64,000 bases of DNA from NCBI GenBank assembly GCA_964573395.1, contig CAZNJI010000005.1:7759-71758 (forward strand). The letters run 5' to 3'. The stretch is from an uncultured Candidatus Saccharibacteria bacterium. GTDB taxonomy: Bacteria; Patescibacteriota; Minisyncoccia; Phycocordibacterales; UBA9973. Position numbers and translations under genes: made by a program. Positions 5,569-46,549 of the stretch are shown here, in pieces. Below the pieces are notes generated by a model that saw nothing but the letters and a program-made list of their open reading frames with translations, was not told where the DNA came from and did not search any database. How positions within the stretch are numbered: the first letter of the stretch is position 1; each line of letters starts with the position of its first letter.

Positions 5569-5652
5569 TGCCGGAGTGGCGGAATGGTAGACGCAATCGA
5601 CTCAAAATCGATCGGGAGTAATCCCATGAGAGTTCAAGTCTCTCCTCCGGCA
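5569..5652 (+). tRNA. tRNA-Leu(CAA)
   Basis: Manual fold: acceptor gccggag/ctccggc, anticodon stem aatcg/cgatc with loop cuCAAaa, long variable arm, T-loop ttcaagt. Confidence 0.85.
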
Positions 5653-5657
5653 CACTG

Positions 5658-5741
5658 CCGCGGTGGCGAAATTGGTAGACGCGCTACGTTCAGGTCGTAG
5701 TGAGAGCAATCTCATGGAAGTTCAAGTCTTCTCCGCGGCAC
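5658..5741 (+). tRNA. tRNA-Leu(CAG)
   Basis: Manual fold: acceptor gccgcgg/ccgcggc, anticodon loop uuCAGgu, long variable arm. Confidence 0.85.
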
Positions 5742-6904: not shown

Positions 6905-6917
6905 AGAACAATTTTTG

Positions 6918-6988
6918 CGGGTGATGAAGGAATCGAACCCTCGACGACGGTTTTGGAGACCGTAGTTATACCATTTAACTAATCACCC
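6918..6988 (-). tRNA. tRNA-Trp(CCA)
   Basis: Minus-strand fold: acceptor gggtgat/atcaccc, anticodon stem acggt/accgt with loop cuCCAaa, T-loop ttcgatt. Confidence 0.85.
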
Positions 6989-7028
6989 AAATGGACTGCA
7001 AAACTATAACAAAAAAGCAGTCTTTCGA

Positions 7029-7187
7029 CTACTTTTTCGCTTCTTTAAAGGTAATGATTTTACGGAGCTTTTTGCTGTATTTCTTAGCTTCAAGCTTCAC
7101 GTTTGCAAGCTTCTTGCGGTTTTTTCGCGACCAGTACACCTCTCCGGTTTCCTTGTTTACGAGTCGTACGAGATTATCTTGTGGCAT
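7029..7187 (-). CDS. rpmG: 50S ribosomal protein L33 (52 aa, below the ORF-track cutoff)
   Basis: Manual translation: MPQDNLVRLVNKETGEVYWSRKNRKKLANVKLEAKKYSKKLRKIITFKEAKK. The rpmG-tRNA-Trp linkage is the classic arrangement. Confidence 0.8.
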   Translation of the reverse strand: MPQDNLVRLVNKETGEVYWSRKNRKKLANVKLEAKKYSKKLRKIITFKEAKK

Positions 7188-7281
7188 AGTTCCGTTACGA
7201 TAGCACGAGAGTTATTTTTTTACAATAGATGAATATTGACTTTTATCCAAAATATGTTAATATAAGGAAAAATTATTTACT

Positions 7282-7698
7282 ATGGTACCTCAAACAACCA
7301 ACCGCCAATACCGCGCGCAGATTATTGATCGCATACTCTCCCAAAGAAAAAAACCGTTTTGTAGCAGGTCAAAAGAGCTTCAACAAAAAGACTGTGTAGA
7401 AGCGATTACACCAGAAGTACTGAAAAGTAGTTACCTGAAAACATTCTCTCTCGGAAAAAACACCATTTTCAAGTTCGGTGGAATCATTCGCCTCTTTAGT
7501 GACGAACGCAAGGCCACCATGTCCATTTCTGAAGAAAGAATCTTATACGGCCTCGAAACAGAGGAAGATTTTATTCAATACTGGGAAACCTGTGCAAAAG
7601 TACATAAGGTTTGGGAACTGACTGAAGATGAGAAAAAAAATATTGAGATGTTCCTCAGAAATCAGCGTGTCGCAGAATCACGCAAGTATGCCGCCTGA
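7282..7698 (+). CDS. Hypothetical protein
   Basis: ORF preceded by a sigma70-like TTGACT..N17..AATATA promoter at about 7236-7268. Confidence 0.4.
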   Translation: MVPQTTNRQYRAQIIDRILSQRKKPFCSRSKELQQKDCVEAITPEVLKSSYLKTFSLGKNTIFKFGGIIRLFSDERKATMSISEERILYGLETEEDFIQYWETCAKVHKVWELTEDEKKNIEMFLRNQRVAESRKYAA

Positions 7699-7747
7699 AT
7701 GAAACAAAAAACCCGGACAAAATTGTCCGGGTTTTCTTTTTAATACA

Positions 7748-8152
7748 TTACCCAATCGGCTGGCCGATGCTTTCGCAGTAGCGAGCGAAGTCGTCGAATT
7801 GGGAACCGAGTTCGCGGGCAAGCTGATCGATTCTTCCTGGGCTCATGCAATCATTCGGGTAGAAGTTAATCGTCCGAGAAGTATTGACGTATTCGTACGA
7901 GGAAGAATTTGTTCGAGTATCATAGTATCCATCATAAACAGTTGCTCGAAGCGTAAAAGGCCGGTAAGAGCGATATTCGTACAGATCACCCAAATGGTTT
8001 CCGGTACGGAAGTCGTGGCCAATAAGCATTCGGTTCGCAACCATCGAGCGGCCAGTTCCGCGAGGAATGGCAATGCCAATAAGCACTCCAATAATGAGGG
8101 CAACAATACCGATAGCGGCAAACAATCCGCGGCTGTTTTGATTCTGTTCCAT
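7748..8152 (-). CDS. Hypothetical N-terminally membrane-anchored protein
   Basis: MEQNQNSRGLFAAIGIVALIIGVLIGIAIP is a single TM segment followed by a Tyr/Arg-rich soluble domain. Start is taken at an internal ATG (8152). Confidence 0.45.
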   Translation of the reverse strand: MEQNQNSRGLFAAIGIVALIIGVLIGIAIPRGTGRSMVANRMLIGHDFRTGNHLGDLYEYRSYRPFTLRATVYDGYYDTRTNSSSYEYVNTSRTINFYPNDCMSPGRIDQLARELGSQFDDFARYCESIGQPIG

Positions 8153-8197
8153 ATATTCGGATACTACCCCTATTTTCTGATTTGGCAAGCGCCGGGC

Positions 8198-8290
8198 AGG
8201 ATTTGAACAGGAAAAAGGTCGGGAAAACACTCTGTTTTCCCGTGAAGGAAGGATTGGGAAAACCGTGGGTTTCCCAGGGGGTTCATATTT
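8198..8290 (-). repeat. tRNA-3'-end-associated two-hairpin module, copy A
   Basis: 8198-8217 is an exact 20-nt direct copy of 8432-8451 (3' end of tRNA-Tyr). It is followed by hairpin gggaaaac-actct-gttttccc and hairpin gggaaaaccgtgggtttccc. Copy B is homologous. Confidence 0.6.
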
Positions 8291-8298
8291 CTGTCTGG

Positions 8299-8340
8299 CG
8301 CAAATGTAAAAACCTCAGTTCCTCTGAGGTTTTTACATTT
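8299..8340. other. Long perfect hairpin (17-bp stem) aaatgtaaaaacctcag/ctgaggtttttacattt
   Basis: Seen directly in the sequence. Confidence 0.6.
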
Positions 8341-8427
8341 ATCACCAACCCCCGTAGTGGAAGGCAATCGGAGCAACGCGGAGACGTTGGATACCGCTGT
8401 GTGTCCAAGACGGGGGTCGGGGGTTGG

Positions 8428-8513
8428 TGGTGCGCCGGGCAGGATTTGAACCTGCGTAGCCCGAAGGCGCCTGATTTACAGTCAGGTGTAATTGACCACT
8501 CTACCACCGACGC
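8428..8513 (-). tRNA. tRNA-Tyr(GUA), CCA encoded
   Basis: Minus-strand fold: acceptor gcgtcgg.., anticodon stem cctga/tcagg with loop cuGUAaa, long variable arm, T-arm gcagg-ttcaaat-cctgc, 3' gcgcacca. Confidence 0.85.
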
Positions 8514-14992: not shown

Positions 14993-15064
14993 GTCCTGGT
15001 GGCCAAGTGGTAAGGCGGAGCTCTGCAAAAGCTCTATACGCGAGTTCGATTCTCGCCCAGGACT
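14993..15064 (+). tRNA. tRNA-Cys(GCA)
   Basis: Acceptor gtcctgg/ccaggac, anticodon stem gagct/agctc with loop cuGCAaa, T-loop ttcgatt. Confidence 0.8.
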
Positions 15065-15143
15065 CCCTAAAACATTTGCTTCGCAAATGTTCGGGCGAAT
15101 AATTTGCCCGAGGCAAATTGTTTTAGCCACAACGTAATACATT

Positions 15144-15227
<84 letters not shown>

Positions 15228-15284
15228 CAAATAAAAAAAGAGTTTTGTGGTCAGGGATAAATACATAATTTGCAGGAATCTCAC

Positions 15285-15371
15285 AAGCTGGGAAACCCAC
15301 GGTTTTCCCAATCCTTCCTCCACGGGGAAACAGCAGTTTCCCCGACCCCCTTCTGGTTCGAATCCTGCTAG
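15285..15371 (+). repeat. tRNA-3'-end-associated two-hairpin module, copy B
   Basis: 15291-15319 is an exact inverted match to 8252-8280. Hairpin ggggaaac-agca-gtttcccc shows a compensatory G-C versus A-T change relative to copy A. It ends with ggttcgaatcctgctag, identical to the sense 3' end of tRNA-Lys on the other strand. Confidence 0.6.
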
Positions 15372-15424
15372 ACTAATCAATGTAACAAAAAATTCCTAGC
15401 AATAAGCTAAGAATTTTTTATTAT

Positions 15425-15498
15425 GTGCGCCTAGCAGGATTCGAACCTGCGACCGTTTGCTTAAGAGGCAACTGCTCTACCGACTGAGCTATAGGCGC
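15425..15498 (-). tRNA. tRNA-Lys(CUU)
   Basis: Minus-strand fold: gcgccta.. acceptor, anticodon loop cuCUUaa, T-arm gcagg-ttcgaat-cctgc. Confidence 0.8.
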
Positions 15499-15509
15499 TT
15501 ATAAAAATG

Positions 15510-15594
15510 TGCCGAGGAGAGGACTTGAACCTCCACAGGTGTAACCCTACCTGCTCCTAAGGCAGGCGCGTCTACCAATTTCGCCACCTCGGCA
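15510..15594 (-). tRNA. tRNA-Leu(UAG)
   Basis: Minus-strand fold: acceptor gccgagg, anticodon stem cctgc/gcagg with loop cuUAGga, long variable arm. Confidence 0.8.
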
Positions 15595-34338: not shown

Positions 34339-34611
34339 AACGGTATCACAAACGATGCTATAATCATCGGGCATTTTTAAAATGCTTAGTTCTTTATGTA
34401 TTAATATTCCCCTGTAGCTTGCGGTGGAGTGAGGCTTGGGATGGGACCCAAGCTGCAAGACCTTTTGAGATAGAATTGAGCATGCGAAAATTATATCCAA
34501 AAGGTGTACAGCTCCTGTAAGGAGGTCGCCGAGGCGACTGCCTACCGCGTAACAATTTATTTTGGCAATCATTAATGATGGTTACCAAATAGAACGTTAC
34601 AAAAAAAATAT

Positions 34612-34976
34612 TCCCCTGTAGCTCAGCGGTAGAGCAGTCGCCTGTAACATGAACAATGTTCAAATAGCAGCTTCCCGATCGAAAGACGGGTCGAAAAACG
34701 AAGTGAATTGACTGGAAATCCTGATCACACAGGATAATCAGCAGCCAAGCCCAGCCGTGAATCCAATAAGTTATTGAACTCACAACTGGGAAGGTTCAGA
34801 GACTATCTCGAAAGAGAGTACTCTCAGCCGTATTTTGTTTATAAAAAAATACGGCTAGGCGGAAGCGCTTCGCACCTTCCCTTTTTATTAAGAATGGTGA
34901 TGATATAGTCCATACCCGCAGTAATGCGAGAATATATGTAAGCGATTGGTCGTAGGTTCGAATCCTACCGGGGGAG
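34612..34976 (+). tRNA. tRNA-Asn(GUU) interrupted in the anticodon loop (between positions 35/36) by a ~293-nt intron-like insert (34646-34938)
   Basis: 5' exon: tcccctg-ta-gctc-agcggta-gagc-a-gtcgc-cugu. 3' exon: uaa-gcgat-tggtc-gtagg-ttcgaat-cctac-cggggga-g. Acceptor 7/7 paired (with U6-G67), and the G73 discriminator is typical of tRNA-Asn. The insert ends in G and contains CAGCCAAG and AGACUA P7-like motifs. Confidence 0.55.
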
Positions 34977-36641
34977 CAAAGTCGAACAAACATCCCTGAA
35001 AATAGGATTTTGTTCCGAAACATCAATGATATTTTCAGGTTCGAACTGTATGTTCTTCTGTTTTGCCGCACTTAGTCCATCAATTAGAGTTTGAAACTCT
35101 TCTGCGTTGGTAATACTCATTTTTTCTTCATTCCAGATAAGGTTCGATTTAAACTTCTTCAAAACAACTCGTTTAGCCTTGGTATCATCTGAAGAAAGAA
35201 CATCCACGAAAGATTGTGTTAAATCAACAATTTCACGCATTCGTATTGACCAATCCTGTCTTTGTATTGATTGCGTTTTAAGCTCAGCAACTTCCCTATC
35301 AATTTTTTCAGCATCTTTTTTGTAATCATCGGGAGAAGTTACACCATCGTTTAAATACTGTCGTGCTCGGTCCTTGCGTGCAAGAAGCTGTTCAAGGTGA
35401 CTTTTTCTTCCTTGTTCAATCGTTACAATGTGCTCTACTTCTCTATCTTTCATTTCTTGAATATTTCTCCTGCACCAATCCGCTAAAGCTGGCGATAGTT
35501 GAAGATTTTCCTTAACGTAGCTGATTAAGTAGTCAGTAATACAAGATTCTTCAATATATCGAGCTTTGAGTTTTTTCTTTCTACGACTGACGTTGTAATA
35601 GTAATGGTATGAGAGGTATTTAGGGCTCTTAATTTCTGCAAGTGTTTTGTTGCATTTAGGGCAACAGTCCTTGTTCTGGTAGGAGAATTTATATTTGCAC
35701 TCGCAAATTAATTGAAGCTTTATATCTGGACCAATAAATTCACCGTAAGGAGATTTAATAAAACCACTATAAGGAGTTAAGTGCTCTTTTGTCTTTGGAA
35801 CACTTCTATCTCCAAGCATTCTGCGTACCTTGTAATGTTCTGCCTCGGTTATCATTCGAGGTAATTCTGGAGCAAGCTCATATCGTTCTCCTCCATAGTA
35901 AAAGAAGCCTGCAAAAATAGGGTCTTTCAAAATTTCATAAATACGTGAGTAAGTAATAAATTTCCCACCAATTCTTTTACTCTTCCGTGTTGTGAACTTA
36001 ACTTCATTTACTGCCCACTCATAGAGCTGTGTTCCGGAATAGCTTCCGGAAAGAAACATACTGAACATCTGTTTGATAATGTTAAACCGATCCTCATCTA
36101 CTAACCACTTCCTATTTCCCTTTTCTTCGCTTCGATCATTTTTAAACCCAAGAGCCGCAAGACCATGTGGGTATCCCATGCTAGCTTTCTTTGCCTGCCC
36201 TCGTTTTACGTTTACCGAAAGATCTCGACTAAACTGATTAGCTGAACCAAATTCAACTGACATAAGGAGTGCATTTTCGTTTGGAAGATATACTTTAGTA
36301 GGAGTAATAATTGCTTTGATGATTCCTTTTTGAAGTAAGTCTATTATGAGCCCTCCATCAACCATGTTTCGAGCAAGACGGTCCAATTTCCAGCAGATAA
36401 TTGCATTGATTTTTCCCTCATGTAGGTCTTTAATCATTCGCTTATAAATCTCACGCTCTCCGGCAAAATGTGCCGATTTTGCTTCTTCATACAATTCTGA
36501 CTTCACTATTTCCCAATATGAAATTAGACGCTCTGCCTCTTCCTTTTGGGCTGGAATTGAAAGGACCTGTTTTTCTTCAGATTCTTGCGATTTCCTACAA
36601 TAAATTCCTGGAATTAAATCTTTTATTTGGTTCCTGTCCAT
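34965..36641 (-). CDS. Large serine recombinase (site-specific integrase)
   Basis: Resolvase catalytic domain (IYCRKSQESEEKQ..S, KLDRLARN), a recombinase domain, and a Zn-ribbon CECKYK..CCPKC. The last 4 codons overlap the tRNA-Asn T-arm/acceptor. Confidence 0.9.
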   Translation of the reverse strand: MDRNQIKDLIPGIYCRKSQESEEKQVLSIPAQKEEAERLISYWEIVKSELYEEAKSAHFAGEREIYKRMIKDLHEGKINAIICWKLDRLARNMVDGGLIIDLLQKGIIKAIITPTKVYLPNENALLMSVEFGSANQFSRDLSVNVKRGQAKKASMGYPHGLAALGFKNDRSEEKGNRKWLVDEDRFNIIKQMFSMFLSGSYSGTQLYEWAVNEVKFTTRKSKRIGGKFITYSRIYEILKDPIFAGFFYYGGERYELAPELPRMITEAEHYKVRRMLGDRSVPKTKEHLTPYSGFIKSPYGEFIGPDIKLQLICECKYKFSYQNKDCCPKCNKTLAEIKSPKYLSYHYYYNVSRRKKKLKARYIEESCITDYLISYVKENLQLSPALADWCRRNIQEMKDREVEHIVTIEQGRKSHLEQLLARKDRARQYLNDGVTSPDDYKKDAEKIDREVAELKTQSIQRQDWSIRMREIVDLTQSFVDVLSSDDTKAKRVVLKKFKSNLIWNEEKMSITNAEEFQTLIDGLSAAKQKNIQFEPENIIDVSEQNPIFRDVCSTLLPR

Positions 36642-37924: not shown

Positions 37925-38303
37925 AGTTTAATTTTTTGTTTAAAAACAATAAAACATTCTTTTAATAATTAAATGGGTTTTTGTATATAAAACGCAAAAA
38001 GCCCAACACGAAGGTGGTAGCTTGCGCTACCCATACCAGTTTCCCGGTATGACCAGTGACGGCAGACCCTTCGATGTTGGGTTCTTTGCACGTCACTGGT
38101 TTTTCTTCACCATGCCAGCCCTAGGGGCTGGTTTAGGCTACTTCGCTAAGTATTACACGAAAATATGAAGTTTTCTACAGATAGGTTTAAAAACCCAAAA
38201 ACCCAAGAAATCCATATTTTCTTAGGTAGATAAGAGTCCGGTTTTTAAACCGGAAAACCCGATATTTTGGTTTAAAAACCAAAAAAACAATAACCCTTAA
38301 AAA

Positions 38304-38355: not shown

Positions 38356-39273
38356 ATGATGCCAAATATGGAAAACTCTCCCACCCCTAAAACAATGTTT
38401 ACTGATACATTTCCTGATGATATTACGTCTGACGAAGAATTAGATGTTATAAAAGCTCAATATCCAGATTACGATGATTATTATGTGGCGAGTGGTTCCA
38501 TTAAGGAACGTAGAGAAAGTTTTGATGCAATGTATCAAATATACGCTCCTTATGCCGATAAACACTTTCTTTCCGATCTAAAAAAGCATTTCCATGAACG
38601 AACATGGGAAATGTATATTGGATATACCCTAATAAAAAATGGTGTCTCATTTACATCCACAAATAAAGGACCAGATATTCTTATTGAAACACCTGAAGGG
38701 AAAATATGGATTGAAGCTGTTGTTTGTAACAGTGGAGATGGCCCAGATCGTGTCCCAGCTATGATATATGGTGTAGCCTCAGATGTACCCGATGATGAAA
38801 TGATTATCAGAATGGCAAATAGCCTTGATGCCAAATTTAAAAAATATCAAAAATATATTAATGAAGATATTGTGTCAGTAGAAGATAAATTAATCATTGC
38901 TGTAAACGCCGGTATTTTTAGCCACGTAGTTGATGGAGATATGCCACTTATTCTAAAAGCAATTTTTGCTATCGGATTCCGAACATTATCATTACCAATC
39001 GACGGAAAAGGACCAGTAAAACCAGGGATCTCGACTAGAAATTTTATTGAAAAGAAAAATGGAAGCAAGGTTGCAACCACTTTCTTTTTAGAAAAAGAAC
39101 ATGCTTCAATTAGTGCTGTTTTATATACCAGTAGAACAGTGCTTAATCAAGATGAGCCAGCTGGGACTAATATAATGGTAGTTCGTAATCCAATAGCTAC
39201 TAATCCTCTCCCGGATGATGCGTTCCCATTTATGCATCAAATTATTACTAAAGGAGGCATTATAGAATTATGA
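38356..39273 (+). CDS. Hypothetical protein (possible PD-(D/E)xK-like nuclease), first gene of a 3-gene operon
   Basis: 305 aa with GPDILIETPEGKIWIEAVV resembling a D..ExK core. Its stop overlaps the next start (ATGA). Confidence 0.45.
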   Translation: MMPNMENSPTPKTMFTDTFPDDITSDEELDVIKAQYPDYDDYYVASGSIKERRESFDAMYQIYAPYADKHFLSDLKKHFHERTWEMYIGYTLIKNGVSFTSTNKGPDILIETPEGKIWIEAVVCNSGDGPDRVPAMIYGVASDVPDDEMIIRMANSLDAKFKKYQKYINEDIVSVEDKLIIAVNAGIFSHVVDGDMPLILKAIFAIGFRTLSLPIDGKGPVKPGISTRNFIEKKNGSKVATTFFLEKEHASISAVLYTSRTVLNQDEPAGTNIMVVRNPIATNPLPDDAFPFMHQIITKGGIIEL

Positions 39274-40268
39274 AAACCTGCATTTATTGTAGATCGCAGA
39301 ATCAATCTTTATTTAAAGGGGTTGAGCATCTTATACCCCAAAGTTTTGGTACTTTCAGCTCTGAGACTCCAACGTTAAAATGTGTTTGTGATGAGTGCAA
39401 TGCTTTCTTTGCAAAAGAACTCGACCAAATACTTGCTCGTGACAGCTGGGAAGGTGTAGAGAGATACAAAAAAGGAATTAAATCCAGAGAACAAAGACCT
39501 ATTAAGAGACTAAAATTTAGTCTCGAAAATACCCCAGAAATGGGCGAATTTGGCGGAATGGTTTTTGAAGGTGTTGATGCTACTACAGGAAAATTACTAC
39601 ATCCGAAAGGGCAATTTCATATAAAAAACATTAAAACTAAAAAATTTGATGTCTTCTTTACAGATGCAATAAAAAATATAAAACTTGATGATGAAACGTA
39701 TGGAGTAAAAGGCACGAGAGAAACAAAAATATTTGCAAATTCTGAAGAAGAACACCAAGCTGTTTTTGATGAAGTAAGAAAAATTATTCCGACTTATAAA
39801 ATAAAAGAAAAATTTCAACCTCCATTTATTCAAGGTAGAAAAGATGATGAAGTAATTGAACTTCCAATTTGGATTGAGGGAACTATTGATCATCCTATAA
39901 AAAGAGGATTAATAAAGATTCTTCTAAATTTTTCAGCTTACTATATTGGAAATGAAGAAGTTCTTAAGTCGGAATGGGATAAAGCAAGAGACTACGTTAG
40001 ACTTAATTCAGAACCAATCTTGGGTAAAGCTGATACTAAACCTTTCTGGGGAGATGAAACAGAAGTAATGCGTCTCCCAAATGATAGCTTTAATATTCTT
40101 GTTGAGAATAAAGGTAAAGATGTAATAGGAAAAATCCAAATATATAATTTTTATACCCACACCTTTATTCTCGCTGAGAATCACAGTATTCCTATAGGAA
40201 AAGAAAAAGCTATGCGCTTTACTAAAGGAAAACCTCCATACCGCGCAGAAAAAAGAACAGTGTTTTAA
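39270..40268 (+). CDS. HNH endonuclease-domain protein
   Basis: N-terminal CIYCRS..FKGVEHLIPQSFG HNH motif plus a second Cys pair CVCDEC. Confidence 0.65.
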   Translation: MKTCIYCRSQNQSLFKGVEHLIPQSFGTFSSETPTLKCVCDECNAFFAKELDQILARDSWEGVERYKKGIKSREQRPIKRLKFSLENTPEMGEFGGMVFEGVDATTGKLLHPKGQFHIKNIKTKKFDVFFTDAIKNIKLDDETYGVKGTRETKIFANSEEEHQAVFDEVRKIIPTYKIKEKFQPPFIQGRKDDEVIELPIWIEGTIDHPIKRGLIKILLNFSAYYIGNEEVLKSEWDKARDYVRLNSEPILGKADTKPFWGDETEVMRLPNDSFNILVENKGKDVIGKIQIYNFYTHTFILAENHSIPIGKEKAMRFTKGKPPYRAEKRTVF

Positions 40269-41039: not shown

Positions 41040-41801
41040 ATGCCAACAGAGGCTCATTTTACGCTATACCTCGATGAAACTGGGGATCATCTTCTTTACT
41101 CAGAGGAAGAATACCTTCAAAATTCAGAACTAGAAAGTCATTGTACTCTCTTAGGCTACATCCTTCAAAATGACGTTAAGCCTATTGTAAAAGAAGGACT
41201 CAAAGCCTTGAAAAGAGAATTTTGGAAGACGGATGAAGTTATATTACATAGTGTAAAGATACGTCATAAACAAGGATGCTTCGCTTTGTTTCATTACATA
41301 CCTGAAATGTATGAGAAATTTAAGGTTCGATTAATGGAGATTATTAAACTATCTAACCCCGTGATTGTATGTAGTTCACTAGACAAGCGATTATGGATTA
41401 AAAAATATCCAAGGAAATACTACTTTAAAGACGATCCTTATGATCAGGCATTTATTTTTCTTCTGGAAAAATATGCGCGTTTTCTTAACGATCAGAAATA
41501 CGACAAAGTGGTTGGTCGAATATCTGTTGAAAAAAGAGATCCCGCCAGAGACAAATCGCTAAGAGAGACATATACGAGCGTAAAGAGAAATGGTACTCAA
41601 TTTCGCAATAAAAACTTTTTCGATAAACTCTCGGATAAAATGGATTTTGACAGTAAAGGATTCAATATTCCCGGTTTGCAATTGAGTGACTATTGTTCAT
41701 ATCCTTTTTATATAAACCATAAATTTCCTACTCGAGATAATAAATTATATGAACTACTTAAGACATATATTTATAACTGTGGACATAAAAAATGGCCCTA
41801 A
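41040..41801 (+). CDS. DUF3800-like protein
   Basis: N-terminal LYLDETGD resembles the DUF3800 signature (hydrophobic-YIDESG); 253 aa. Confidence 0.5.
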   Translation: MPTEAHFTLYLDETGDHLLYSEEEYLQNSELESHCTLLGYILQNDVKPIVKEGLKALKREFWKTDEVILHSVKIRHKQGCFALFHYIPEMYEKFKVRLMEIIKLSNPVIVCSSLDKRLWIKKYPRKYYFKDDPYDQAFIFLLEKYARFLNDQKYDKVVGRISVEKRDPARDKSLRETYTSVKRNGTQFRNKNFFDKLSDKMDFDSKGFNIPGLQLSDYCSYPFYINHKFPTRDNKLYELLKTYIYNCGHKKWP

Positions 41802-42871: not shown

Positions 42872-43582
42872 ATGATAGTAATGAAAAAGTTTATTATTTA
42901 CACACTACTGTCAGTATGTCTTCTCATAGTATGCGGATATGGTTTGCTTCAAGTTAGCAAATCCCGCACCTTTCAATTCTTTGGTAGCATTGTAAGTCGG
43001 GTTGATACTGAAGAAAAAGTAATTGCCCTTACATTTGATGATGGACCAGAAAGTTATACCAATGAGATATTGAGTGTGCTTAAAAAGAAACAAGTAAAAG
43101 CTACGTTTTATGTAATTGGTGAGAGATTGCAAGAAAACTTAGAGATTGGAAAACGTATTACAGACGAAGGCCACGAATTAGGTAATCACTCGTATACTCA
43201 TCAGCGATTTTTATTCAAATCACAATCCTTTATTGATAGCGAGATACAAAGAACTAATCAACTTATTCGTGAGACAGGATATGGAGGAGCTATCACGTTT
43301 CGCCCGCCATATGGGAAAAAACTATTCGGGCTTCCGTGGTATCTAAATAAACACAACATTGAAACCATTATGGTTGATGTTGAACCCGATACCTATGGAA
43401 CAACATCCGACTTTTTTGTTGAATATACAGTTGCTAATACAAAAGCGGGTTCTATTATTTTGCTTCATCCATTCTGTGAGACCTGCATCGAACAAAGAAA
43501 AGCTGTTCCACTCATAATAGATGCACTAAAGGAAAAGGGTTATACCTTTGTTACTGTTTCTGAGCTACTTTCTAAAAGATAA
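42872..43582 (+). CDS. Polysaccharide deacetylase (NodB-homology domain)
   Basis: TFDDGPESYT.., ATFYVIG.., GHELGNHSYTH motifs; N-terminal TM. Confidence 0.8.
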   Translation: MIVMKKFIIYTLLSVCLLIVCGYGLLQVSKSRTFQFFGSIVSRVDTEEKVIALTFDDGPESYTNEILSVLKKKQVKATFYVIGERLQENLEIGKRITDEGHELGNHSYTHQRFLFKSQSFIDSEIQRTNQLIRETGYGGAITFRPPYGKKLFGLPWYLNKHNIETIMVDVEPDTYGTTSDFFVEYTVANTKAGSIILLHPFCETCIEQRKAVPLIIDALKEKGYTFVTVSELLSKR

Positions 43583-43595
43583 GTTTAGAGAAATC

Positions 43596-43702
43596 AGTTC
43601 TGAAGTTTTGCCTCAGGAAATATCTCAAAAATCTTAGAAAACTCAATATCTCTTTTGATTGCAGTCCAGTTGAGAGTTCTGAACTCGTCCACTAGAGGGA
43701 GC
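43596..43702 (+). repeat. Conserved ~107-bp intergenic repeat R1 (cassette-boundary-like)
   Basis: tAGTTCTGAAGt ..ctcaaaaatcttagaaaactc.. gAGTTCTGAACtcgtccac-agagggagc. Four copies lie in the island. Confidence 0.7.
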
Positions 43703-43708
43703 AAATAT

Positions 43709-43736
43709 TTGACTTATTTATATTTTATGCTATTAT
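43709..43736 (+). promoter_or_regulatory. Sigma70-like promoter after R1 (TTGACT-16-TATTAT)
   Basis: Seen in sequence; conserved with the promoter after R3. Confidence 0.55.
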
Positions 43737-44521: not shown

Positions 44522-44562
44522 CAAAACAAGACCTCACGCAATAACTATGTGTGAGGTTTTTT

Positions 44563-44669
44563 AGTTCTGAAGTATCATCAAAGGAAATACCTCAAAAATC
44601 TTAGAAACTTCTAAATCTCTTTTAATTGCAACCCAGTTAAGAGTTCTGAACTCGTCCACGAGAGGGAGC
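44563..44669 (+). repeat. Intergenic repeat R2
   Basis: Same architecture as R1. Confidence 0.7.
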
Positions 44670-44783
44670 CATTTTTTGAAGCTTATTTCGTAACAGTTAA
44701 TTTTGATACCCAAATAGGGTTCAGAACTTTACATAAGAAAAGCCCGCCATTACTGACGAGCTTTTTTTGTTTTTAATCGTTGA

Positions 44784-45140: not shown

Positions 45141-45263
45141 AACGATAATTGTTTATTTTGAAGAACAGTGAGGTTACGACCCTCGATTACGTTGCTGAAT
45201 AACTCAGTCTTGTTTACATTGTAGCATACTACAAGATAAATGTCAATATATAGCCAATTTACT

Positions 45264-45370
45264 AGTTCTGAAGTGCCATCATCGGAAACATCTCAAAAAT
45301 CTTAGAAAACTCCAATTCCCTTTTGATAGCAACCCAGTTAAGGGTTCTGAACTCGTCCACTAAAGGGAGC
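45264..45370 (+). repeat. Intergenic repeat R3
   Basis: Same architecture as R1. Followed by a TTGACT-17-TATTAT promoter at 45377-45405. Confidence 0.7.
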
Positions 45371-45526
45371 TAATACTTGACTTTTCTATATTTTTATGCT
45401 ATTATATATTTGTAATAGTACTTTGAGATACTTGGTTATTTAATGTTGATTTTGTTGGGTTTTCTGTGTTCCCTGCTTGGGATTATAGACAACTCAATAA
45501 TTTCTAACAATTAAATAAACAAAAAA

Positions 45527-46000: not shown

Positions 46001-46054
46001 CAAACAACCCGCCAACACGGAAACCCGTTCGTTGAGCGGGTTTTCTTTTTGTTT

Positions 46055-46161
46055 AGTTCTGAAGTACTACCACTGGCAACAACTCAAAAATCTTTGAAAA
46101 CTCCAAATCTCTTTTGATGGCAGTCCAATTCAGAGTTCTGAACTTGTCCAAGAGAGGGAGC
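46055..46161 (+). repeat. Intergenic repeat R4
   Basis: Same architecture as R1. Confidence 0.7.
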
Positions 46162-46549
46162 AAAGTAAAAAAGACCTTTTCAGGTCTTAGGTTGATACCC
46201 GCTCCATTTAGTTTTACTTCTTGCATTTAGCACGATGACGCGGACAAGAAAACTGCTTGGAACTAAAAAAACTTCGCGAACAGTTAAAAGTCCCTCTATT
46301 TTATAATAGTCGGAGCGACTGCCTCAACTAAAAACAAACTTTTGCTTTAACTATAGGAGAGTTTGAACCTATAGCATCCCCAAGGATTAACTTTGCTTGG
46401 AGAACCACAAATTTTTAAGCGGATACCGTTCTTGGTATGTATTCTCTCTTCTTCATTATACTAGCACGTTCCCCCCCCCGCCGAATGGCAGGATAAACTC
46501 CAATGTTCAGAGCTCCTAAAAATCTTAAACCAGCAACACTGCGTTGGCC

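Follow-up and report, generated by a model that had tools for sequence, protein, structure and literature searches.

The question raised by this locus is whether a transfer RNA (tRNA) gene for asparagine that is cut in two by a 293-nt insert is still a working gene, and what an exact copy of its 5' end is doing a short distance upstream. The window, which is the whole stretch of DNA analysed, is 64,000 nt of contig CAZNJI010000005.1 (assembly GCA_964573395.1) from an uncultured Candidatus Saccharibacteria bacterium. The best explanation of the locus as a whole is an intron-split tRNA-Asn(GUU) gene preceded by a structured module, and this was given a probability of about 0.85. Related loci are referred to by L numbers.

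The interrupted tRNA-Asn gene and its intron

The gene is composed of two exons and a group I intron. The features are as follows.

34612-34645, plus strand: tRNA-Asn exon 1 (acceptor 5' strand, D-arm, anticodon-stem 5' strand, C32 U33 G34 U35)
34646-34938, plus strand: group I intron of 293 nt without an open reading frame (ORF), between anticodon positions 35 and 36
34642-34645 with 34667-34670, plus strand: P1, exon CUGU with guide GCAG, U34645.G34667 wobble at the splice site (minimum-free-energy fold)
34674-34690, plus strand: P2
34699-34705 with 34866-34872, plus strand: P3
34708-34743, plus strand: P4/P5
34744-34794, plus strand: P6/P6a
34801-34805 with 34906-34910, plus strand: P7, GACUA complementary to UAGUC
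34806-34817, plus strand: P7.1
34826-34856, plus strand: P7.2, an extra 11-bp hairpin absent from six other aligned introns
34873-34899, plus strand: P8
34916-34930, plus strand: P9, with a GUAA loop
34939-34976, plus strand: tRNA-Asn exon 2 (U36 A37 A38, anticodon-stem 3' strand, variable loop, T-arm, acceptor 3' strand, G73)

Joined together the exons form a 72-nt tRNA-Asn(GUU). With introns allowed, ARAGORN called tRNA-Asn(gtt) with a 293-nt intron after position 35, i(35,293), and the artificially spliced sequence gave a clean tRNA-Asn with a regular cloverleaf. The base before the intron is U (34645) and the last intron base is G (34938). The original prediction had proposed that a group I intron of about this size interrupts the anticodon loop of a tRNA-Asn(GUU), with the same exon limits and with an insert that follows a U and ends in G. 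All of this was right to the nucleotide, as judged by the Rfam group I intron model (RF00028), intron-aware ARAGORN and identity to intronless genes.

Those intronless genes are the uninterrupted tRNA-Asn genes on metagenomic contigs L160 and L130, to which the spliced tRNA is identical at 72 of 72 positions. This identity makes the exon junction exact and leaves the exons without decay. L160 is syntenic with the window, and its pyruvate kinase has 63% amino acid identity to that of the window. Presence of the intron therefore varies among relatives having identical exons, and L160 and L130 offer a clean natural pair with the window for the study of intron gain or loss. Default ARAGORN found 8 tRNAs in the window, none of them at 34612-34976, and the Rfam tRNA model also missed the interrupted gene. 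No second tRNA-Asn was found in the 64-kb window by ARAGORN or the Rfam scan. As default tRNA finders miss the gene, the genome would look as if it had no tRNA-Asn, and the window intron is an example of a known annotation blind spot for split tRNA-Asn genes.

The intron scored 86.7 bits with RF00028, for which the gathering score is 50 (whole-window E 1e-20). Core motifs had been proposed from the sequence; both are present, at positions 1-2 nt away from those first given, with CAGCCAAG at 34742-34749 and AGACTA at 34800-34805. The P7 5' strand is separated from the P3 3' strand by two hairpins (34806-34817 and 34826-34856), which is the subgroup-IA arrangement. The intron appears IA-like on the basis of this architecture and homology to published IA cases. 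At 293 nt it is too short for a homing-endonuclease gene and no ORF was credited to it. The gene structure, the intron core and the exact junction are established.

The intron was aligned with L104, L054 and four published introns taken from the supplement of Nakagawa et al., namely GCA_016700035.1 (validated), GCA_016699245.1, GCA_016700315.1 and GCA_016700015.1. The GCAGC guide, GGTGAATTG, AATCnGCAGCCAAGC, GAAGGTTCAGAGACTA, AGCGC, GATGAnATAGTCC and the terminal G|TAA are invariant in all 7 introns. Compensatory changes were seen in 22 of 47 predicted pairs across P2-P9, and helices P3, P4, P5, P6, P8 and P9 are supported by the alignment. The P7.1 region of the window intron is most like the Paceibacteria example. 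The closest intron found was L104 (approximately 80% identity over part of its length). No match to the window exon 1 was found in the accessible part of the tables of Nakagawa et al. Two automated helices were rejected. The Rfam model put P1/P2 on a hairpin at 34560-34607, upstream of the tRNA, with exon 1 taken as an insertion, so that an automated 5' boundary would be off by about 85 nt. This is an alignment artefact, and the CUGU/GCAG pairing was preferred based on the fold and the invariant guide. The first helix of RNAalifold (exon with ATAGTC) is spurious and stems from the P7 pseudoknot.

Nakagawa et al. (mSystems 2026, PMC13011429; preprint 10.1101/2025.07.03.662931, July 2025) have described Patescibacteria in which group I introns interrupt tRNA-Asn(GUU), Asp and Tyr at position 35/36. 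The 35/36 tRNA-Asn intron was the commonest tRNA intron in that phylum, with 15 of 22 cases in 95 complete genomes (PMC13011429). Nearly all of the introns belonged to subgroup IA, most lacked endonuclease genes, and standard tools often missed them or miscalled them as Thr(UGU) 33/34 (PMC13011429). Precise in vitro self-splicing was reported for one Asn and one Asp example, with a terminal G-to-C control, and intron-bearing and intronless copies of one anticodon rarely coexisted in a genome (PMC13011429). One genome per species was scanned here with a pattern spanning P7', the terminal G, TAA and the T-arm, which gave at least 120 loci. Among the 120 matches listed 90 are intron-split tRNAs; 46 were called Asn(GUU) and most of the others are the known Thr(UGU) miscall. 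Asn introns being common in both the published and the scanned genomes, the earlier claim that an Asn(GUU) host would be unusual is out of date. Genes for def-fmt recur beside tRNA-Asn in named Patescibacteria metagenome-assembled genomes (MAGs) with 40-53% amino acid identity. The def-fmt synteny partners and L104, the closest tRNA/intron relative, are Patescibacteria MAGs, which suggests a Patescibacteria host for the window. The window intron is an ordinary further member of the class published in 2025-26.

The segment 34612-34976 is very probably a functional tRNA-Asn(GUU) gene with an ORF-less 293-nt group I intron between positions 35 and 36. Homology to introns that self-splice in vitro suggests that the window intron would be catalytic. 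In the precursor the exon CUGU and the intron guide GCAG would form P1, with the U.G wobble at the splice site. An external guanosine held at P7 would cut after U35. The terminal G34938 would then replace the external guanosine and the exons would be ligated to give the mature 72-nt tRNA.

The structured unit upstream of the gene

A 17-nt repeat, AATATTCCCCTGTAGCT, occurs exactly at 34403-34419 and at 34607-34623, the latter at the 5' end of the tRNA. By our own estimate approximately 0.008 exact 17-mer pairs would be expected by chance in the 17-kb region searched. The original prediction had found this copy and was correct as to its sequence and position. It had described the copy as having no further tRNA body, which did not hold: the copy is the 5' end of a conserved structured element. 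Degenerate similarity to the tRNA continues to 34429 (25 of 28 aligned positions), and tRNA nt ~17-32 recur as an inverted copy further downstream. The features of the unit and its spacer are as follows.

34403-34429, plus strand: direct partial tRNA copy (5-nt leader and tRNA nt 1-12, 17/17 at 34403-34419, then degenerate through the D-loop and D-stem)
34421-34427 with 34541-34548, plus strand: closing pairing of the unit
34426-34524, plus strand: conserved structured core (GAGUGAG, hairpin 1, GCAAGA, hairpin 2, UGUACAG, hairpin 3)
34434-34453, plus strand: core hairpin 1
34461-34504, plus strand: core hairpin 2
34512-34524, plus strand: core hairpin 3, with a CUGUAAG loop
34525-34538, plus strand: hairpin GTCGCC-GA-GGCGAC, from local anticodon-stem sequence
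34533-34548, plus strand: inverted copy of tRNA nt ~17-32, overlapping the hairpin at 34525-34538
34562-34588, plus strand: spacer hairpin between the unit and the tRNA, in the same place in the relative L160

The whole unit (34403-34548) is approximately 145 nt and is comprised of the tRNA 5' copy, the core, the anticodon-stem hairpin and the inverted tRNA fragment. It folds into a closed multi-hairpin structure which is far better than that of shuffled controls (z = -4.7). An orthologous unit with 78% identity is present in L160. The L160 unit precedes an intronless tRNA, and the upstream unit is therefore independent of the intron.

A covariance model, R1, was built from the window copy of the core. 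It found at least 114 core copies from 100 sources, which were Patescibacteria-type genomes and metagenomes, sometimes with 2-3 copies per contig. In the 114-copy alignment 95.7% of cells were paired compared to 64.8% in shuffles and 38-51% with slid partners, and changes on both sides were seen in 27 of 29 pairs. Because this alignment was fitted to the model, the test was repeated with a plain MAFFT alignment of 14 copies and RNAalifold. The same three hairpins were recovered, with compensatory changes in 13 of 25 pairs. Counted pair by pair with one odd position excluded, G.U was more frequent than A.C (67 vs 15, p 5e-9), and the fold therefore belongs to the strand shown, which is the tRNA strand in the window. 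The junction motifs GAGUGAG, CGCAAGA and UGwACAG and the CUGUAAG loop are invariant in the core. The unit is a folded element that is conserved and strand-specific, and it is joined to a displaced tRNA 5' copy.

A core pattern with 25 specified bases gave at least 120 metagenome matches, with about 1 expected by chance (own estimate), and 0 matches in 2.9 million viral contigs. Core copies on the same contig were 45% identical compared to 47% for unrelated copies. Being as diverged as unrelated copies, they are old and separately maintained and do not reflect recent transposition. Near-identical same-contig copies and a fixed-length target duplication, as looked for in a miniature inverted-repeat transposable element (MITE) or a recently active insertion, were both absent from the family.

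The core occurs beside tRNA genes with or without introns, and in many cases a partial copy of the nearby tRNA is joined to it. In the tRNA-linked unit the leader and tRNA nt 1-21 are followed by the core (GAGUGAG to CUGUAAG) and the anticodon-stem hairpin. An inverted copy then runs back to nt ~22 and pairs with the core start, and a 40-80 nt A/T-rich spacer leads to the intact tRNA. This design was also found upstream of intronless tRNA-Asn and upstream of tRNA-Thr and tRNA-Val, and core copies were seen beside tRNA-Ser and other tRNA genes as well. In every case the tRNA-derived parts match the tRNA of that locus. A direct copy of the leader and tRNA 5' end was found 70-310 nt upstream in approximately 10 of 66 tRNA-Asn loci with introns, from different lineages, and at L054, L081 and L101 the repeats enclose a homologue of the window core. 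The flanking repeats are 12-45 nt and are missing from most copies without a tRNA. Copies far from tRNAs are enclosed by their own long, sequence-variable basal stem. The core thus has two forms, one set in a long basal stem of its own and one joined to a copy of the neighbouring tRNA's first ~21 nt or to an inverted copy of its last ~34 nt.

For tRNA-Ile the unit was seen in mirror image, at the 3' end. Units of this mirror-image kind were also noted at tRNA 3' ends in L160 (3170-3400), L081 (2712-2900), L133, L139, L186, L207 and L233. The order in these is the tRNA, a palindromic spacer, an inverted tRNA 3' copy, an opposite-strand core or core-like segment and a direct 15-36 nt tRNA 3' copy.

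The seven-base CUGUAAG loop of hairpin 3 (34512-34524) is the same in all core copies. It is shaped like an anticodon loop with U33, a GUA anticodon and A37, and has the UGU motif common to Asn, Asp, His and Tyr tRNAs. This may be mimicry or coincidence.

In the window no Rfam 15 match overlapped the core with E values up to 10, nor was there one at E up to 1-10 in the related loci, and nothing reached the Rfam gathering level. Ribonuclease P (RNase P) RNA, signal recognition particle RNA, transfer-messenger RNA, 5S, 6S, known small ribozymes and omega/HEARO were rejected as identities for the core, with no Rfam match at permissive thresholds. From its sequence the core was also considered as a small ORF; this was dropped as the stems co-vary. 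The idea of a phage attachment site (attP) was dropped with the 0 viral-contig matches. No description of the core family was found in the searchable literature, including the context of LOOT RNA and of GIY-YIG genes at tRNA genes.

There is an about even chance that the unit is a structured small RNA module on the tRNA strand, belonging to an old, multi-copy and intron-independent family. Such a module would have captured a copy of the tRNA 5' end. It would probably be transcribed with, or like, the tRNA afterwards, and an RNase P cut at the true tRNA 5' end would free it from the tRNA. A more specific proposal, held tentatively and at a little under even odds, is that the 17-nt copy marks a member of an undescribed, widespread Patescibacteria-type RNA family with a three-hairpin core of ~90 nt and a tRNA-linked function such as processing, mimicry or tRNA-gene targeting. 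The upstream element is a more valuable and more novel lead than the intron, being abundant, strongly co-varying and without an Rfam family. If it is a functional RNA it would be a candidate for a new class of RNA, in a phylum whose genomes are very small.

Weighing the explanations

For the tRNA itself, two other readings were considered. Annotation tools often pick a boundary that makes such a gene tRNA-Thr(UGU) with an intron at 33/34; ARAGORN made this call for many homologous loci, and the Thr/Asn ambiguity is documented (PMC13011429). In the window ARAGORN calls Asn, and the Asn junction reproduces the intronless tRNA-Asn genes exactly. With the Thr boundary, 2 nt upstream, the intron would end in A (34936) instead of G, and the Thr(UGU) reading was rejected on this ground as scarcely credible. 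The gene could also be a dead tRNA-Asn, disrupted by an intron relic, with an intact second tRNA-Asn elsewhere serving translation. Such a relic would be compatible with a locus known here from sequence alone, with 64 kb of the genome in view. It is very improbable given exons that match intronless homologues at 72/72 positions and catalytic-core motifs and helices that are all intact and co-vary with validated introns. The rarity of intron-bearing and intronless copies of the same anticodon in one genome (PMC13011429) also argues for a gene in use.

For the upstream unit, the repeat and the 187 nt between its copies could be a functionless scar, that is a junction of integration or duplication at the tRNA 5' end resembling a left attachment site (attL). 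Direct tRNA-end repeats flank the unit in 43 of 120 metagenome copies listed, the same tRNA is a favoured site of serine-recombinase islands, mirror-image arrangements with inverted and direct 3' copies exist at tRNA 3' ends, and tycheposons are a precedent for partial-tRNA remnants (10.1101/2020.12.28.424599). A scar is nevertheless unlikely, as it would not be expected to keep three hairpins by compensatory changes over 114 copies or to have the G.U over A.C strand asymmetry. Nor would it be expected to remain 78% identical in L160 when pyruvate kinase is 63% identical at the amino acid level, or to occur far from tRNAs within its own basal stem. No recombinase lies between the direct repeats in the window; the tRNA separates the unit from the serine recombinase. 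Somewhat more doubtful again is a recognition module, of RNA or DNA, of a tRNA-targeting mobile element, with the flanks as guides or attachment half-sites and the recombinase acting in trans. It would account for a constant core with tRNA-derived segments that follow the local tRNA (Asn, Thr, Val, Ile) and for a junction at one position (after nt ~21) in different tRNAs. Of the syntenic def-fmt/tRNA-Asn loci, some have the element and some do not, and a serine recombinase adjoins the same tRNA in the window. Against this, recombinase loci mostly lack the core and vice versa, same-contig copies are too old and diverged for recent mobility, the viral contigs had no matches, and the tRNA-derived segments are paired with each other and so are not free for a target.

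Several points weigh against the preferred explanation of an intron-split tRNA with a structured module, starting with the extent of sequence in view noted above. Some pairs of P8 are non-canonical in the Rfam alignment. The promoter and terminator scan of the upstream unit gave nothing assignable and was uninformative. The main covariation count rests on a model-fitted alignment, half of the core copies among the matches listed have no nearby tRNA, and the direct repeats also fit integration or duplication. Clustering of neighbouring ORFs gave no consistent partner recombinase, transposase or guide nuclease, which also tells against a recognition module. The only recurrent mobile gene near the core was the serine recombinase beside tRNA-Asn.

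The neighbourhood of the tRNA and comparison with known systems

An island begins at the tRNA 3' end and extends from 34965 to approximately 46171. It has a G+C content of 0.31-0.37 compared to about 0.49. Its identified genes are listed below, and it also holds several ORFs of unknown function.

34965-36641, minus strand: large serine recombinase of 558 amino acids with Resolvase and Recombinase domains
39270-40268: HNH_5 protein
41040-41801: DUF3800 protein
42872-43582: polysaccharide deacetylase

The recombinase is the first gene of the island and its 3' end (stop) overlaps the tRNA 3' end. An 11-nt repeat, GGGAGCAAAGT, is present at both island edges (34970-34980 and 46156-46166) and is a candidate attachment-site core. 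An exact-protein lookup of the recombinase gave one match, a public 7.6-kb contig (L001) which ends exactly at the tRNA boundary; the same lookup of the window pyruvate kinase gave no match. Homologous recombinases adjoin tRNA-Asn in at least 10 of 120 genome loci listed and abut its 3' end in at least 6. They lie within 3 kb of the core in 10 metagenome loci among the matches listed. As such recombinases recur beside tRNA-Asn, this tRNA is a site at which serine-recombinase islands have docked repeatedly in these bacteria. L160 has other cargo genes at the island position.

A LOOT RNA (Rfam RF03000, 84 bits) was found inside the island at 38016-38139. It shares the minus strand with the recombinase gene and lies 1.4 kb upstream of it. 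A second copy (L027 1-120) is situated approximately 3 kb upstream of a recombinase homologue that adjoins tRNA-Asn. These serine-recombinase islands may have LOOT as one of their components. The island also has four copies of a 123-nt repeat (43590-43712, 44557-44679, 45258-45380 and 46049-46171) which are 77-82% identical. Three of the four start 8-49 nt after the stop of a plus-strand ORF, giving the look of a cassette array. Each ends in ..GAGGGAGC, resembling the tRNA-Asn 3' end, and has the motifs AAAATCTTAG and CTTTTGATT, which are found right after tRNA-Asn in L160 and L081. These repeats may be serial integration junctions. The 8 further tRNA genes of the window lie in three small groups between 5570 and 15593, and none is interrupted.

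5570-5741: two tRNA-Leu
6917-8513: tRNA-Trp and tRNA-Tyr
14993-15593: tRNA-Cys, tRNA-Leu, tRNA-Lys and tRNA-Leu

In four related loci (L027, L057, L069 and L088) a GIY-YIG nuclease gene of 85-88 amino acids lies between a displaced exon-1 copy and an intron-bearing tRNA-Asn (Pfam PF01541, E 4e-15 to 6.5e-18). These look like a free-standing homing-endonuclease cassette at tRNA-Asn. A similar gene upstream of an intron-bearing tRNA-Asn was read by eye only in L112. A GC-rich hairpin is present in the D-loop of the displaced copy in L027, L112 and L069 and is nearly identical in L027 and L112. Approximately 300 nt upstream of tRNA-Asn in L065, a Pirellulales MAG, there are two tandem extra exon-1 copies, one of which runs into the first ~20 nt of the intron and then masked N. 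These may be a tandem duplication of exon 1 and the intron start or an assembly problem.

ERIC, BOX and Correia-type elements are short multi-copy intergenic elements able to fold as RNA, like the core. The core differs from them in having divergence within contigs equal to that between contigs, conserved single-stranded junction motifs and no fixed-length target duplication. Tycheposon-type tRNA islands (10.1101/2020.12.28.424599) likewise combine a tRNA, an accessory island with a site-specific recombinase and nearby partial tRNA copies. The recombinase of the window is a large serine recombinase. The partial tRNA copy of the window, in contrast to those of tycheposons, is at the 5' side, stands no more than 204 nt from the gene and is joined to a conserved, co-varying structured core, with no integrase between the repeats. 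The GIY-YIG genes of L027, L057, L069 and L088 were likened to SegB of phage T4, a free-standing GIY-YIG gene in a tRNA region (PMC2330249). Unlike SegB, their predicted proteins consist of the catalytic domain only, and the window has no GIY-YIG gene.

The paper of Nakagawa et al. does not mention upstream tRNA copies or adjacent recombinases. The window intron is like the Asn introns described there in its host tRNA, its site, the U before it and the G at its end, and in having no homing-endonuclease gene. It also shares their conserved core sequences and IA-type hairpins between P7 and P3', and is likewise missed by default tools. It differs from the six other aligned introns in its extra 11-bp hairpin at 34826-34856. 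The classical bacterial tRNA introns (Leu(UAA) 34/35, fMet 33/34, Arg/Ile 36/37, mostly IC) are self-splicing, and like the window intron they are group I introns in the anticodon loop and use an anticodon-loop U for the P1 wobble. The window intron differs from these in its insertion at 35/36 and in its IA-type architecture with P7.1/P7.2 rather than IC.

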